This document shows positions 1 through 63,224 of a stretch of 64,000 nucleotides of DNA, piece after piece. The DNA comes from a virus. Lineage: Duplodnaviria; Caudoviricetes. Position 1 is the stretch's first letter; each line of letters starts with the position of its first letter. The translations under genes were made by a program, and so were the position numbers. The stretch spans positions 63,206-127,205 of the IMG/VR virus record IMGVR_UViG_3300002220_000189. The stretch is one strand, 5' to 3'. The notes beneath the pieces are model-generated. The model was given only the letters and a program-made list of their open reading frames with translations, searched no databases and was not told where the DNA came from.

Positions 1-999
1 GTCATAAATTTTATCGTCAATAAGACGTAAATCTTCTTCTGTTACATCAATATCATTAATTTTCTTTATAATACCATCCATTTCTTTCTTTGATGATATC
101 ATATTACGTTGTTTATCTTTTAATTGAGTTAATTGAAATTTTAATTCATCAGATTTCTTCTCATTATATCTAATTTCTATATTAAGTTCGTGTATTTTGT
201 TGTTTATAACATTAAGTTTTTCATTTGATTTTTCATTGATTTTAGTGTATATATTCAAACCAAACACTCTTTCCAAAAATGCTCTTTTTTTCTGAGTATC
301 CATTTTTAGTATAGGTGTTAAAGTATTGAGATTTGTATGTACTATGGATACAAATGTATTAAAATCAATATCTAATATTTCAGTTTCTAATTGTTTTTGA
401 TATAATCTAACATCAGATAATGGTGGAATTGGATCATTATTACGATATATTTCCAATTTATCAGGTTTTATTCCTCTTATTATAGTAAATATATCGTTAT
501 TTTTTTTAAATCTTATTTTGACTTCACAATTTTTACGATTTTTCCAATTTACTATTTGTTCTTTCTTAACACTTCTATTCAATTTACCAAAAAGTGCAAA
601 TGTAATAGGTTCAAGACATGAAGAATTATGTGAAAGAATACCGTTTGAATAGTACTGTTCTACTTCTTCCACTTGAATATCATATAATGTATATTTTAAC
701 GGAAGTTTATAACATTCTATAACTTGTTCATGGCCTTTTTTAGTTTGAATATTGTTTGATATTTTTAGATTTTTTACAAACACCCAATTACCATATTCAT
801 CTTTTACTCTGTGATCAGGAGAACAGATAAGAGAAAATGATAGTGTTTTCAATAAAAATGATTCTGCATTTTTTTCAATAATTTCACAAGCAATAATTCT
901 TTTATTTCCATATGGCGTATCCACATATATTGATCCGATATGTTCAGGAAATTTTTTGTAAAATTTATAAATTTTAGATATTGTACAGGTTACATTCAT
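1..999 (-). CDS. gp46: Split-intein C fragment (125 aa) fused to the C-terminal part of the gp46/SbcC-like recombination ATPase; runs off the window end
   Basis: Missing from the ORF track. Manual translation from ATG 999 gives MNVTCTISKIYKF...LICSPDHRVKD...LYDIQVEEVEQYYSNGILSHN|SSCLEPITFALFGK...IVNWKNRKNCEV...IRGIKPDKLEIY. The part after HN is typical gp46. Confidence 0.9.
   Translation of the reverse strand, partial: MNVTCTISKIYKFYKKFPEHIGSIYVDTPYGNKRIIACEIIEKNAESFLLKTLSFSLICSPDHRVKDEYGNWVFVKNLKISNNIQTKKGHEQVIECYKLPLKYTLYDIQVEEVEQYYSNGILSHNSSCLEPITFALFGKLNRSVKKEQIVNWKNRKNCEVKIRFKKNNDIFTIIRGIKPDKLEIYRNNDPIPPLSDVRLYQKQLETEILDIDFNTFVSIVHTNLNTLTPILKMDTQKKRAFLERVFGLNIYTKINEKSNEKLNVINNKIHELNIEIRYNEKKSDELKFQLTQLKDKQRNMISSKKEMDGIIKKINDIDVTEEDLRLIDDKIYD
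625..999 (-). mobile_element. C-intein of an atypically split intein
   Basis: Block B-like CSPDH, block F LYDIQV, block G ILSHN followed by Ser(+1). Confidence 0.88.
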
Positions 1000-2053
1000 T
1001 TTCTAGAATAAAATCCTTACATTTTTGAATATTTACTTCTTTAGTATCAGATGACCATATTTCTAAAACTTTAAAGTTTGCACTATTAGCTAGTTCAAGT
1101 TTATGTTTTTGATAGTTATACATTTCTTTAGCCGATTTTCTATTGAAAGGATGTTGCCATTTTTCTAATTTTTCATCATTCCATAATGGGTTTGGATGAA
1201 ATGCCTCTCCATTATATTCTATAATAAGTCTTACAGGATGTAAAATAGTAAAATCATAAAAGTAACATTTTATAGTTCCATCTACATTTTTTCTATTCTC
1301 AAATAATTTAAATTCACCTAATTCATTACATCCGATAAAAATATCAGTTTGTTTGTATTTTCTAGATATAAGCCATTCGTATAATTCAATAAAAATGGTA
1401 AGAGATTCTTGTGAATATAACGAATTTTTCATACCTTTTATCATTGCTGTTTTCCATGATTTATATTTCTTTGTTCCTTCTTCGATACCATATTTCTTGA
1501 TATTATTTTCTAATGAATTGCTACATTTCAAACATCTTTCGGTATATTTCTTTGTTCCTTCTTCGATACCATATTTCCTAACAAAGTTTTCCAATGTTAA
1601 CGCTTTTGATTTATTTATCCTTTCAATTTCTTCTGCTGGTTTAGCTTTTAGAGTTTTCTGCCATTTTTCTTGTCTTTCTTCCCATCGTTTAGTACCTTCT
1701 TTCTTACCATATTTTTCTATACATTTTTTTAAAGTAAAAGTTCTTTGTCTTTCTGATACTTTTTGTTTAGCTTCTTCTTCAGAAAAACCTTTATTTATCC
1801 AATATTCAATATTCATATTATAATATTTTTTATATTTTTGTGGGTTTTCTTTTTTAGTTTTTGATCCTTTTTTACACATTTCTAATATTTTTTGTTTAGC
1901 TTCTTCTTCAGAAAAACCTTTATTTATCCAATATTCAATATTTGTAGGTCTTCTTTTTCTTATTTCAAGAATAGAGTCTTTTTCAGAAAAACCTTTATTT
2001 ATCCAATATTTTATTGAGTATGGTGATATTATATTACCTTTTTCATCTTTCAT
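974..2053 (-). CDS. Free-standing putative homing endonuclease: repeated N-terminal DNA-binding motifs plus a C-terminal Vsr/DUF559-like PD-(D/E)xK domain
   Basis: YWINKGFSE x3 and KYGxEEGTKK repeats; C-terminal FYDF...IIEYNGEAFH...VLEIWSSD; lies between the two intein halves. Confidence 0.75.
   Translation of the reverse strand: MKDEKGNIISPYSIKYWINKGFSEKDSILEIRKRRPTNIEYWINKGFSEEEAKQKILEMCKKGSKTKKENPQKYKKYYNMNIEYWINKGFSEEEAKQKVSERQRTFTLKKCIEKYGKKEGTKRWEERQEKWQKTLKAKPAEEIERINKSKALTLENFVRKYGIEEGTKKYTERCLKCSNSLENNIKKYGIEEGTKKYKSWKTAMIKGMKNSLYSQESLTIFIELYEWLISRKYKQTDIFIGCNELGEFKLFENRKNVDGTIKCYFYDFTILHPVRLIIEYNGEAFHPNPLWNDEKLEKWQHPFNRKSAKEMYNYQKHKLELANSANFKVLEIWSSDTKEVNIQKCKDFILENECNLYNI
1760..1942. 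repeat. 54-bp perfect direct repeat (1760-1813 and 1889-1942), with a partial third copy near 1982-2009
   Basis: tttttgtttagcttcttcttcagaaaaacctttatttatccaatattcaatatt, encoding the NIEYWINKGFSEEEAKQK repeats. Confidence 0.85.
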
Positions 2054-2058
2054 ATGAA

Positions 2059-2066
2059 TATTTATA
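2059..2066 (-). promoter_or_regulatory. T4-type late promoter TATAAATA upstream of the endonuclease
   Basis: Exact TATAAATA 5 nt before ATG 2053. Confidence 0.65.
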
Positions 2067-2083
2067 TAAACGCAATCGGAAAA

Positions 2084-2302
2084 TCATTCACTTTCCAAAA
2101 AAATATTAATAATATTTTCAGGAACAATAACATCTATATTTGTCTCACCATCGACACATTTTCCACTAGAATTACTTCTATTTCTTTCACTATCCATTCC
2201 TAAAATAAGATTAATACCTGGAGTGAATGTTATTTTTTGGGGTATTTTACCATATGATAAGAAATTACGCCATTCTATATCAATCATTTCTATTTTATGC
2301 AT
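2084..2302 (-). CDS. gp46: gp46 N-terminal extein (48 aa) plus 24-aa N-intein
   Basis: WRNFLSYG...NLILG...SNSSGK (gp46 N-terminus, Walker A), then CVDGETNIDV (intein block A), then stop. Confidence 0.9.
   Translation of the reverse strand: MHKIEMIDIEWRNFLSYGKIPQKITFTPGINLILGMDSERNRSNSSGKCVDGETNIDVIVPENIINIFLESE
2087..2158 (-). mobile_element. N-intein of an atypically split intein (24 aa)
   Basis: CVDGETNIDVIVPENIINIFLESE directly after the Walker A GK. Confidence 0.85.
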
Positions 2303-2778
2303 TGATTAAATTTTATATCTCCCAACCATAATTTCTGAAGCCATATTACACCCACTTGTAAACCAAATTTAGGCCATGTTTCGGGTGTATCTATAGGTAA
2401 TATTTCTTTTATACCAAATTTAGCACTTTGAATATCTTTCAATCTTGCTTTCATCCATATTGCATTTATAAGACATAAAAAAACAACATTAGTAGATATT
2501 TCCATACTATGTTGTAAAAATTTTCTAAATTGAGAATATGGTGGATTAGTTATTATCCAGTCTACATTTTCATTAAATTCAAAAAAATCTACACCATCAT
2601 CAATTTCACACCATAATTTTGTACATTCTTTTGGAAATGCATTATAAAAAGCGCCTTGTCCTCTACATGGTTCAAGTATTGTTCCAGTTGGTGAAAAATG
2701 GTCTACTATTTTTTGAGCAACGTCTTCTGGTGTATATATTCTATCATTACCACCTTTTCCTATAAGTGCTCTACTCAT
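2290..2778 (-). CDS. DNA amino-methyltransferase (likely N6-adenine)
   Basis: YTP motif, ILEPCRGQGAF (motif I), ITNPPYS (motif IV). Confidence 0.85.
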   Translation of the reverse strand: MSRALIGKGGNDRIYTPEDVAQKIVDHFSPTGTILEPCRGQGAFYNAFPKECTKLWCEIDDGVDFFEFNENVDWIITNPPYSQFRKFLQHSMEISTNVVFLCLINAIWMKARLKDIQSAKFGIKEILPIDTPETWPKFGLQVGVIWLQKLWLGDIKFNQCIK

Positions 2779-2984
2779 CTATCCTCTATACACATATAAA
2801 TTGTTTCAGGGCTAAATCTCTTATTGCCTAAAAAATCTGTAGTACATTTAATCCAAGTAATAGAAAACGAATGCCCTGTCTTATTTTTTAAATGTTCTTC
2901 AAAAGAGGATGTATCAGGACTATTATTTTCAAACCATTCTTCTAATTCCTCATATGTTCCAAACAGTACAGTTTCTTCTCTCAT
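2775..2984 (-). CDS. Hypothetical protein
   Basis: ORF overlapping its neighbour (ATGA coupling). Confidence 0.55.
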   Translation of the reverse strand: MREETVLFGTYEELEEWFENNSPDTSSFEEHLKNKTGHSFSITWIKCTTDFLGNKRFSPETIYMCIEDR

Positions 2985-2989
2985 ATGAT

Positions 2990-3271
2990 TTATCCTTCTT
3001 CTTTTTGATCTTCATATACACCAAGAATACCATATCCAGCAATATCATTATAAGGACTTTCTCCCAAGGCGTGCTTATCAGTAGCAATCCTAAACAATTT
3101 ATCAATTATTCGTGTAACTGCGAGCATATCTCTATATTTATCTACTGTTACACCATTAGGATATAATATTTCCAATATTTTAGGTGAATTAGCAAAAGAA
3201 TCACCATATTTAGCGTTCTTTTCAGTTACTAAACTACCTATTTCTAATCCTATATCTCTATATGATTTCAT
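2990..3271 (-). CDS. DUF1599-like / nucleotide-modification-associated helical protein
   Basis: EKNAKYGDSF...RIIDKLFRI...ESPYNDIAGYGIL pattern. Confidence 0.65.
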   Translation of the reverse strand: MKSYRDIGLEIGSLVTEKNAKYGDSFANSPKILEILYPNGVTVDKYRDMLAVTRIIDKLFRIATDKHALGESPYNDIAGYGILGVYEDQKEEG

Positions 3272-3735
3272 TCTTCCGCATCTCTCCTTTGTTCATATAT
3301 TTCTGAAGCTAAATTTGCAACTCTTGATGCCCATCTTACATCATCTTTATTAAGCTCTACTTCCTCAGCAAAATCTTCAATATCATGTGGAAGTATTTTA
3401 TATGGATTTTTTTCACTATCAATATCTATAAAAATATGCCTTAATTCGTGTCTTAAAAGTCTAATTTTATCAATTCTTTCAATATTATCCCATACACATT
3501 TATCTAAATAAATAATATATGGAATACCTTCTTCAGCTTCTTCTAGTGTTAAATATTTAATTAAATCATTAGATTTTTGACATCTTCCAAGAATTAATTT
3601 TCCCCCAGATTGTCTTTTTTTCAAGTCAAATAATACTTTAATATCAACATTTCTAAGTGATGGAAAATATTCTCCTTTTATTTCTGATAATAAATCTAAT
3701 ACATCTTGTGTTACCTCTTCAAATCTAATATTCAT
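3268..3735 (-). CDS. Putative phage metallopeptidase
   Basis: LLRHELRHI (HExxH) followed by PHDIEDF. Confidence 0.75.
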   Translation of the reverse strand: MNIRFEEVTQDVLDLLSEIKGEYFPSLRNVDIKVLFDLKKRQSGGKLILGRCQKSNDLIKYLTLEEAEEGIPYIIYLDKCVWDNIERIDKIRLLRHELRHIFIDIDSEKNPYKILPHDIEDFAEEVELNKDDVRWASRVANLASEIYEQRRDAEE

Positions 3736-3740
3736 AATAA

Positions 3741-3959
3741 TTACCTCTTCTTTCCTTTCAATTTTATCATATAACGGTTTCTACCAAGTTTTTTTGAAAT
3801 TTTGTAAATATAACCATCAATTTCTAAAAAATCTCTTAAATTTGGATCGGGTCTTGCTATCTTATGAGATGGCATTAATTCAAAAGGTATTTCTGCCTTT
3901 GCTTCTTCATAATCTTTTTTTTCATCATCAAGCATCTTCTTTTTTTCAATATAATCCAT
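3741..3959 (-). CDS. Hypothetical protein
   Basis: ORF tightly packed in the operon. Confidence 0.55.
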   Translation of the reverse strand: MDYIEKKKMLDDEKKDYEEAKAEIPFELMPSHKIARPDPNLRDFLEIDGYIYKISKKLGRNRYMIKLKGKKR

Positions 3960-3968
3960 AAAAATACA

Positions 3969-4910
3969 TTACTCCTTTATATTGTAATAAAATTTATACC
4001 ATTGTACAAATCTTTCTAACCCTTCATCTATATCTACTTTAGGGGAATATCCAAATTCAGAAACTAATTTATCAACATTAGCTCTCGATTTATTGATTTC
4101 ACCCGGTGGTATTGAAACATATTCTTTTTTACCAGTAATACCTGTCAATTCCTCTAACTTTGTTACAACATAGTTCAAATCGACACTGTTAGTATTTGCT
4201 ATATTATATATTACATATTCTTGTGGTATGTGTAATGTTTCTAAAATCATATCAACAACATCATCAACAAAAGTAAAATTTCGTTCCATTTTTCCATAAC
4301 CATTCATCTTCAATACTTTATTATTATACAATGCATCTGTCCATATGTAAATGGCCATATCGGGTCTTCCCCATTCACCATAAACAGTAAAAAATCTCAA
4401 TCCAGTACACTTTACGTTATATGCGCTACTATATACTCTAGCTTGTAACTCATTATATCTTTTAGTTGCTGCATACATATTAAGAGGATTATCAACATCG
4501 GCATCTTCAATAGATTCTTCTTTACTTTCACCATACACACTGCTACTTGATGCATACACAAAATTTTTCACATTCCACATTCTTGCTCGTTCTAACATGT
4601 GAAATGTTCCCCAACTATTATTATATTCATATATTTTAGGATTTTCTAATGAATATGGTATACCGGCATATGCTCCTAAATGACAAATATAATCTGATTT
4701 TAATGAATGTGGAATAAAATTCTGTACAGGTCCCTCATAAAACATAAATTTATCATAATTATTCAGATTATTTAGTCTTGCATGTTTCAAATTTATATCA
4801 TAATATGTGTTTACACTATCTACACCATTTACTCTTTTACCCATATCTAATAATCTTTTACAAACATGATAACCTATAAAACCGGCAGCGCCTGTAATTA
4901 AATATGTCAT
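3969..4910 (-). CDS. NAD-dependent nucleotide-sugar epimerase (UDP-glucuronate 4-epimerase-like)
   Basis: TGAAGFIG, ASSSSVYG, YAATK, LRFFTVYGEWGRPDMA. Confidence 0.9.
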   Translation of the reverse strand: MTYLITGAAGFIGYHVCKRLLDMGKRVNGVDSVNTYYDINLKHARLNNLNNYDKFMFYEGPVQNFIPHSLKSDYICHLGAYAGIPYSLENPKIYEYNNSWGTFHMLERARMWNVKNFVYASSSSVYGESKEESIEDADVDNPLNMYAATKRYNELQARVYSSAYNVKCTGLRFFTVYGEWGRPDMAIYIWTDALYNNKVLKMNGYGKMERNFTFVDDVVDMILETLHIPQEYVIYNIANTNSVDLNYVVTKLEELTGITGKKEYVSIPPGEINKSRANVDKLVSEFGYSPKVDIDEGLERFVQWYKFYYNIKE

Positions 4911-4926
4911 TATTTTTATCCCTCTC

Positions 4927-5919
4927 TTATTCCTTTAAAATTTTATTAATCATTTGTTTCATTACTGATTTTTTTAAATGTTCTGGTATTTCTATTTTAT
5001 TAATATATTCAAAAAATATATCTTTATGATCCATTATTTTTATATTTTCTATTTCATCAAAATCAGTAACTTTATCTTCTATTATTGAAATACTTGAAAA
5101 ATCAGTATATAATTGTAATGGATTATGAATTCTTATACTTTCAATAATTTTAGTATTTTCATTTATACCATAATCTTTAAGAAATTGTAATTTTACAATA
5201 TTATTTGTTATAATATCACTTTTTATTTCTTGTTCAGAATTTATTATAACATATTGTGGTGCATCAGTAAACGATATAAATTCAATATTATTATCATCAA
5301 AAATATAATAACCTCTATCACTATTAACATCATTAAAAGACATATGATAAGGTGAACCTAAATATATTATATTATTTTTTTTTGTGGGAATATGAAAATG
5401 ACCAGATAAGACTAAATCAAAATTTTTAAAATCGTTTATATTAAAAATTGATTTATTATAAATATGTTTTTCATTAGTATAAAAAGAATTTATTTCAAAA
5501 TGACCAAATAAAAACTTACCACCCTTTTTTAATATTTCAGGCGTAAGTTTTTCCCAAGGTACTAAAGTAATATTATCAATAGTACATGTTTCTCTTATAA
5601 CAGATACATTTTTATATTCTTTAAAAACATCTAATGAAGTGGGATAAACATCTGTTTTATAATATGAATCATGATTACCTATAATAATAATAACATTAAA
5701 ATTTTTCAGCATTTCCATAATATGTATTGTTACAGAAAGAGTTTTAATATTTAATGTTTTTCTATCATCGAACCAATCACCTAAATGGATGATAGTTTTA
5801 ATATTTTTTCTATTACAATTATCTATTATAGATTTAAATAATTTTATTGCTGATTGATGCCATATATCAGAAGATTTATGTATACCTAAATGTGTATCAC
5901 TTATTAATAATTTCTTCAT
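4927..5919 (-). CDS. gp47: Recombination endonuclease subunit (SbcD/Mre11-like)
   Basis: SDTHLG, HLGDWFD, GNHD, GHFE, SGHFH metallophosphoesterase motifs. Confidence 0.92.
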   Translation of the reverse strand: MKKLLISDTHLGIHKSSDIWHQSAIKLFKSIIDNCNRKNIKTIIHLGDWFDDRKTLNIKTLSVTIHIMEMLKNFNVIIIIGNHDSYYKTDVYPTSLDVFKEYKNVSVIRETCTIDNITLVPWEKLTPEILKKGGKFLFGHFEINSFYTNEKHIYNKSIFNINDFKNFDLVLSGHFHIPTKKNNIIYLGSPYHMSFNDVNSDRGYYIFDDNNIEFISFTDAPQYVIINSEQEIKSDIITNNIVKLQFLKDYGINENTKIIESIRIHNPLQLYTDFSSISIIEDKVTDFDEIENIKIMDHKDIFFEYINKIEIPEHLKKSVMKQMINKILKE

Positions 5920-63198: not shown

Positions 63199-63224
63199 AC
63201 CACTTATTTTCCCCTCTCATCAAC

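Follow-up and report, generated by a model that had tools for sequence, protein, structure and literature searches.

The question raised by the left end of the stretch analysed here is how gp46, the adenosine triphosphatase (ATPase) of the phage gp46/gp47 recombination nuclease, can be obtained from a gene that is broken within the Walker A motif. The stretch, referred to as the window (64,000 nucleotides, positions 63,206 to 127,205 of the IMG/VR record IMGVR_UViG_3300002220_000189), makes up the right half of a viral contig of 127 kb with 27% G+C and a CheckV completeness of 60%, and its source is an uncultured T4-like phage. At the left end, on the minus strand, the sequence and the list of open reading frames (ORFs) show three ORFs in a row. 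Judging from the sequence, it is very probable that gp46 is split here by a mini-intein together with an endonuclease gene, and that the two protein halves are rejoined by protein trans-splicing.

The first ORF (2302..2084, minus strand) consists of 72 codons and a TGA stop codon at 2086-2084. It encodes a 48-residue N-extein (2159..2302) of the Rad50/SbcC-like gp46, which ends with the Walker A sequence SNSSGK, and then the 24 residues CVDGETNIDVIVPENIINIFLESE of the N-terminal intein fragment (IntN, 2087..2158), comprising Cys1, block A, and a short helix-forming stretch. The third ORF, absent from the ORF list, starts with the ATG at 999 (minus strand). This start is fixed, because a stop codon lies one codon upstream and no earlier start is available. 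The C-terminal intein fragment (IntC, 625..999) is 125 residues long, with block B SPDH (IntC residues 60-63), block F LYDIQV, and block G YYSNGILSHN, the latter followed directly by Ser+1 of the C-extein, SSCLEPITFALFGK. The C-extein (688 residues in all) occupies positions 1..624 and runs 1442 nucleotides beyond the window start, so the ORF of IntC plus C-extein extends past the window edge to 813 residues (L001:2499..58). The gap between the halves is occupied by a free-standing ORF of 359 codons (2053..974, minus strand), which leaves 30 nucleotides free upstream and overlaps the IntC ORF by 26 nucleotides in another frame. Both the 24-residue fragment with its stop codon and the uncalled ORF carrying the remaining intein blocks had been described in the initial annotation, and the sequence bears them out.

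Conceptual splicing of the exteins joins SNSSGK to SSCLEPITFALFGK and yields a protein of 736 residues. The joined exteins align with gp46 of phage KVP40 at an E value of 1e-30, without a gap across the junction to TNGAGKSTYIEAICFALYGK (GK/SS against GKST, the slash marking the insertion point). Removal of the intein thus restores the conserved Walker A motif of the host protein, as the initial annotation had proposed for GKSS. The N-extein alone matches the SbcC-like family PHROG 77 (E 3e-4). The C-extein carries a CPTC zinc hook, the LSGGE signature, a DE Walker B motif (FDE), and the H-loop histidine, and in a tblastn search against 2,659 phage records the C-terminal half matched the annotated gp46 of many phages.

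The part of the C-extein in the window gave no Pfam match at 1e-3, a result that could be taken in favor of a dead gene: the endonuclease insertion would have inactivated gp46, and the phage would either do without it or use the host SbcCD. The fact that selection cannot be measured on the window allele itself also leaves room for this explanation. Against it, none of the three ORFs is disrupted, the C-extein retains the H-loop, the signature motif, the zinc hook, and Walker B, and the catalytic residues of the intein are in place as well. Moreover, the gene for the partner subunit, the gp47 (Mre11/SbcD-like) nuclease, is present at 4927..5919 on the same strand (Pfam Metallophos, 1.3e-11), and the same layout is under purifying selection in many lineages (see below). 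Inactivation of gp46 is therefore considered improbable.

The identity of the intein was examined with profiles and a structural model. A Pfam scan of the three ORFs gave PT-HINT and Intein_splicing matches to IntC, both weak and sub-threshold. A profile built from 23 IntC sequences, compared with the PDB, matched at least 30 solved inteins, among them VidaL (6vgv, 2e-13), CatC, the consensus atypical TerL intein (6dsl_B, 9e-13), gp41-1 (2e-11), and NrdJ-1 (6e-9). The comparison with intein profiles that had been called for in the initial annotation is thus below threshold for Pfam and strong for the family profile. The AlphaFold model of a contiguous relative (L035, not the window copy) has the HINT fold, with a predicted local distance difference test (pLDDT) value of 83.6. 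Its best match in the PDB is again VidaL (E 2e-10, template modeling score 0.72), and NrdJ-1, gp41-1, and Npu DnaB are matched as well.

The residues expected to act in catalysis are strictly conserved. In 23 aligned split alleles Cys1, which directly follows GK, and Thr6 of IntN are invariant, as are His63 (block B), Asp107 (block F), His124, and Asn125 of IntC. The +1 residue is always Ser or Thr in the aligned family, and it is Ser in the window copy (SHN/S). By alignment, the invariant residues are those of class 1 splicing chemistry. The two halves are separate translation units, with the TGA at 2086-2084 and the ATG at 999, and both signals are kept in relatives.

The position of the split was mapped on the L035 model, in which Cys1 is model residue 7. 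A strand (13-17) is followed by a helix (20-27), a loop, and the next strand (37-39); the split alleles stop and restart in the loop after helix alpha-1, before block B. A split after helix alpha-1 corresponds to S2, the position of the split in AceL-TerL and GOS-TerL; in VidaL and PolB16 it lies one element earlier, at S1 (PMC13014065). The IntN fragments of natural atypical split inteins range within 15-37 residues (PMC13014065), and the 24-residue IntN of the window, which holds block A only, falls inside this range.

Pairing of the two halves was modeled with IntN plus 16 extein residues (40 residues) and IntC plus 15 extein residues (140 residues), each supplied as an alignment. The complex model scored 0.79, compared with 0.00 for the best of three controls. 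The score of 0.79 expresses likeness rather than binding and may derive from structures already known to the model, because similar split-intein complexes (6dsl, 6vgv) are solved. Of 80 solved complexes 58 attained this mark, as did 2 of 110 mismatched pairs. At least 88% of the contacts agree between runs, and the pLDDT of the partners is at least 66. IntN is predicted to pair its strands with residues 1-13 and 23-27 of IntC and also to contact blocks B, F, and G. The initial annotation had argued for electrostatic pairing of an acidic IntN with a basic start of IntC. IntN is indeed acidic (net charge -6), but the first 30 residues of IntC and the whole IntC each carry only +2, so the contrast is modest and the argument weak.

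The complex model bears on association only and not on chemistry, and the gp46 pieces could in principle assemble non-covalently, through the intein halves or other contacts, without splicing. Some phage enzymes are known to function as unligated fragments, as in NrdA/mobE of Aeromonas phage Aeh1 (PMC3045599). In the present case, however, the cut lies between the P-loop Lys and Ser, and an assembly of this kind would leave 149 intein residues in the ATP site. In addition, the residues needed only for splicing (Cys1, block B His, the terminal His-Asn, and Ser/Thr+1) are invariant, which docking alone would not require. Non-covalent assembly is thus quite unlikely, and trans-splicing of the halves remains the preferred explanation.

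The ORF located in the gap (974..2053) is a free-standing gene with homologues at the equivalent place of other loci; 12 of these align to the 359-residue protein with 30-52% identity. Residues D267, E279, G282, and H286 are invariant among them, within the core YDF...IIEYNGxxxH...LEIW, and the N-terminal part of the protein is built of repeated YWINKGFSEEEAK and KYGxEEGTKKY modules. The top three PDB matches of the gap-ORF profile are all to the catalytic region of Vsr endonuclease, with weak E values (0.28-0.37). The window ORF itself has no Pfam match and matches PHROG 22677, of unknown function (2e-13), while relatives match DUF559 at 1e-4 to 7e-3. These weak matches allow a tentative assignment of the protein as a Vsr/DUF559-like nuclease and a putative homing endonuclease. 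Elsewhere the gp46 gap is occupied by a GIY-YIG gene (L023) or by ORFs without a known family (the 512-residue type of L017, and those of L020 and L038); therefore, several nuclease families occupy the same intein loop.

The gene in the gap may bring its own expression signals. The octamer TATAAATA, the T4 late-promoter consensus, is found at 2059..2066 (minus strand), 5 nucleotides upstream of the endonuclease ATG. With 46 copies in the window against 31.8 expected, the octamer is only mildly enriched; it turns up often in DNA so rich in A+T, and a single match is weak evidence. TATAAATA directly abuts the IntN stop codon in L005, L008, and L009, the nearest relatives, a placement that suggests a late promoter carried by the nuclease cassette. 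A conserved leader, TTACCTTTTTGGTTA...GGTTATATTTAT, lies in the first 45 nucleotides after the IntN stop codon, ahead of the Vsr-like nuclease gene, in L039, L044, L049-L060, and L063, and it too looks like a cassette-borne promoter. A scan of positions 1-3000 for sigma-70 promoters and terminators gave counts at or below shuffle expectation. As for the downstream half, an AAGGA is located at 1018-1014, 14 nucleotides before the IntC ATG, in the conserved KCK(D/E)F codons near the 3' end of the nuclease gene. With this long spacing, translation of the C-terminal half may depend on coupling to translation of the endonuclease ORF.

Vsr-like endonuclease genes are also found inside group I introns of recA (PMC2677866), and the interval between the gp46 halves might accordingly be imagined as a group I or II intron that carries the endonuclease ORF and is removed from the RNA to give a contiguous intein or gene. 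An Rfam scan of positions 1-3500 at E <= 1 returned no family, and the endonuclease ORF fills the gap except for 30 nucleotides. The IntN stop codon and the IntC ATG are kept in relatives with gaps down to 27 nucleotides, and for those relatives removal from RNA fails, because a 27-nucleotide gap cannot be an intron. This leaves the intron explanation with a very small probability.

The window copy, with its two halves fractured at the intein, is one member of a large allele family. A search with the IntC region returned 48 proteins, of which ~42 are SbcC-like. Most of them start directly with an IntC of 115-126 residues, some are contiguous (P0004, 881 residues), three have an IntC of only ~38 residues, and three matches are terminases with a long IntC (E 1e-4). 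A pattern scan of IMG/VR gave 79 loci. A profile of the 72-residue ORF detected an ORF of N-extein plus IntN in over 50 related loci; almost every gp46 locus has one upstream. Very short IntN fragments had been described as rare in the initial annotation; this does not hold for gp46, where IMG/VR alone contains ~36 distinct alleles that share this split position, some with a nuclease gene and some lacking it.

All allele states share one insertion site, GK/C or GK/S. The S2-split alleles with a nuclease gene in the gap (~27 distinct, gap of 0.9-1.5 kb) are the most numerous, followed by S2-split alleles without it (~8-9 distinct, gap of 27-355 nucleotides), contiguous mini-inteins (~5 distinct, 147-158 residues), and a single canonical split (99 + 44 residues). 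A subclade with Ser1 (GK/SV or GK/SL; L017, L018, L021, L022, L025, L031, and L041) has longer IntN fragments of 53-58 residues. Its gaps mostly hold an ORF of 512-519 residues, without a Pfam family, which starts inside the IntN coding region; in L025 this is replaced by a Vsr-like ORF of 365 residues. In GenBank phages the IntC relatives lie in terminase genes only and none in gp46, and no cultured phage with the gp46 element was found.

Related inteins are also present in a DnaB-like helicase (L064-L082, GGGK/C ... SHN/SW), both contiguous (L075, 193 residues) and atypically split (L082, IntN of 56 residues, IntC of 138 residues, gap of 108 nucleotides). In some relatives, an Mre11-like (Metallophos) and a Rad50-like part are fused in one frame of 1000-1260 residues with a contiguous intein inside (L028, L034; P0010, P0039).

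The gp46 record is a metagenomic viral contig of the limited completeness given above, and a chimeric contig or a false stop codon could in principle produce such a locus. Dozens of independent contigs, obtained from many samples, show the same layout of stop, gap, and start, and the chance of an assembly or sequencing artefact is negligible. Since dozens of independent viral contigs share the two-ORF layout, chance does not explain it either. Selection was estimated by the Nei-Gojobori method for 11 pairs of split alleles. The ratio of nonsynonymous to synonymous substitution rates (dN/dS) is 0.07-0.46 for IntN and 0.06-0.27 for IntC, and in the two least saturated pairs (synonymous rate dS of IntC ~0.5) it is 0.15-0.20 and 0.08-0.09, respectively. 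The low values in both fragments indicate that purifying selection keeps both halves after the split, and this maintenance would be hard to explain unless the halves are functional.

Several observations weigh against splicing of the window copy. The Pfam matches to the intein stay below curated thresholds, Ser replaces Thr of the block B TxxH motif, and the spacing between AAGGA and the IntC start codon is long. The nearest relatives of the window intein are only ~50-55% identical, and selection was measured in other clades; the selection evidence is therefore at the level of the family, the window allele being without a close relative (best 55% identity). On the other side stand the invariant residues, the profile and fold matches to VidaL and Cat, and the selection in relatives, and these support the view of the initial annotation that gp46 is fractured by an atypically split intein.

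The course of events that would lead to this locus can be outlined as follows. A mini-intein would have invaded the gp46 gene between Lys and Ser of Walker A (GK/S). A free-standing gene for a Vsr-like homing endonuclease would then have landed in the intein loop after the first helix, at S2, and this landing would have broken gp46 into two cistrons. The 72-residue product (N-extein plus IntN) and the 813-residue product (IntC plus C-extein) are predicted to pair via the intein halves and to rebuild the HINT fold. Class 1 trans-splicing could then proceed through Cys1, the block B His, the block F Asp, the terminal His-Asn, and Ser+1, freeing the intein pieces and giving the 736-residue gp46 with an intact P-loop. 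The analysis demonstrates the anatomy, the homology, the conservation, the selection in relatives, and the predicted pairing; that splicing takes place, that the endonuclease is active and mobile, and the order of the two insertions are what we infer.

The maximum-likelihood tree shows the allele states interleaved, even inside well-supported shallow clades. One of the nuclease-less alleles (L033) retains ~40 nucleotides with homology to the leader found ahead of the nuclease gene in the close relative L039, and hence the split state there has outlived the nuclease gene. A broader proposal, to which we assign slightly less than an even chance, is that the loop after helix alpha-1 is a recurrent landing pad for unrelated endonuclease genes, and that repeated invasion and loss creates and sustains atypically split inteins. 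If so, this cycle would be naturally recorded in the gp46 alleles, whose states are the contiguous intein, the S2 split with a nuclease gene, the S2 split in which only part of the nuclease leader is left, and the one canonical split. Because contiguous, atypically split, and conventionally split forms coexist at a single site, the family allows the creation of split inteins by endonuclease genes to be tested directly.

In the surroundings of the locus, six other ORFs lie between the gp47 gene and gp46, while genes 47 and 46 of T4 and KVP40 are direct or near neighbors. The interval (2990-4910, minus strand) contains a gene for a NAD-dependent epimerase/dehydratase (3969-4910), a putative phage metallopeptidase gene (3268-3735, minus strand), and small ORFs. 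Closer to gp46, an ORF of 162 residues (2290-2778, minus strand) overlaps the start of the N-terminal gp46 gene from upstream; it has an NPPY motif and a sub-threshold match to an EcoRI-type adenine methyltransferase. The same phage genome has a second intein outside the window (G000:C1:22486-25938, plus strand; L084:87-3539). It is contiguous, contains a LAGLIDADG endonuclease domain, and resides in a ribonucleotide reductase (Ribonuc_red_lgC + TSCPD), with a block G end of VANGFITHN/T.

For phage biology, the locus implies that an essential recombination ATPase of many uncultured T4-like and jumbo phages is probably ligated after translation, and annotation pipelines that label the 72-residue ORF as hypothetical will miss this ligation. 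For protein engineering, few natural split inteins have an IntN of a length accessible to peptide synthesis (AceL TerL, GOS TerL, VidaL, and PolB16; PMC13014065), and the large and diverse gp46 family, with IntN fragments of 23-33 residues and the additional Ser1 subclade, supplies many new candidates.

Among the closest known systems are the AceL-TerL and GOS-TerL inteins and their consensus form Cat (6dsl), which are class 1 inteins, naturally split, from uncultured phages, with an IntN of ~25 residues, the S2 split, and an IntC of more than 100 residues (as given in PMC13014065, which cites Thiel 2014 and Bachmann & Mootz 2015 for the AceL and GOS TerL work). Their host protein is a phage ATPase, interrupted in its P-loop region, and they are related in sequence to the gp46 intein (CatC, E 9e-13; TerL with long IntC, E 1e-4). 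The host differs, being gp46/Rad50 here and not the large terminase, and the present intein has an IntC of 125 residues, Cys1, and Ser+1. VidaL (6vgv; Burton et al. 2020, via PMC13014065) is the best match in both sequence (2e-13) and fold (E 2e-10) and is likewise atypically split and metagenomic, but it is split after strand beta-2 (S1), has a 16-residue IntN, and resides in another host protein, in contrast to the S2 split and 24-residue IntN observed here. The properties of AceL-TerL, GOS-TerL, VidaL, and Cat are given here as cited in PMC13014065 and PMC10189870.

With regard to gene layout, the locus resembles the fractured genes described by Dassa, London, Stoddard, Schueler-Furman, and Pietrokovski in 2009 (PMC2677866), in which an endonuclease gene lies between split-intein halves on the same strand, in overlapping frames and with its own control elements. 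The same is found here, with the free-standing ORF 2053..974 between the halves, on the same strand, and homologous gap ORFs in at least 12 loci. Half of the loci described there carry Vsr-like endonucleases, the arrangement is found mainly in phages, and the host proteins include DnaE, NrdA, NrdJ, DNA ligase, IMPDH, and terminase (PMC2677866). In contrast, gp46, SbcC, and Rad50 appear nowhere in that text, and its SbcD-like locus has a Vsr-like insert without an intein. The gap protein shares with the Vsr-like endonucleases of the I-Bth0305I type (PMC2677866, PMC3239194) the place inside a split intein, an N-terminal part rich in repeats, and, in the C-terminal part, a D...E.xG...H...W core that can be aligned with Escherichia coli Vsr; the likeness is a weak one, with the top PDB match to Vsr at E 0.3 and no Pfam match.

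In Aeh1 NrdA/mobE (PMC3045599) a phage enzyme gene is also fractured by a free-standing endonuclease gene, but no intein is present there and the enzyme reassembles non-covalently, whereas the complete intein chemistry is kept in gp46. The initial annotation knew of no precedent in gp46/SbcC, and no publication on an intein in gp46, SbcC, or Rad50 was found in the literature searched, a body that leaves most subscription journals outside it, so that absence is not proof. The mechanism and the gene layout are thus already known from the systems compared above, and what is new is gp46 as the host protein.

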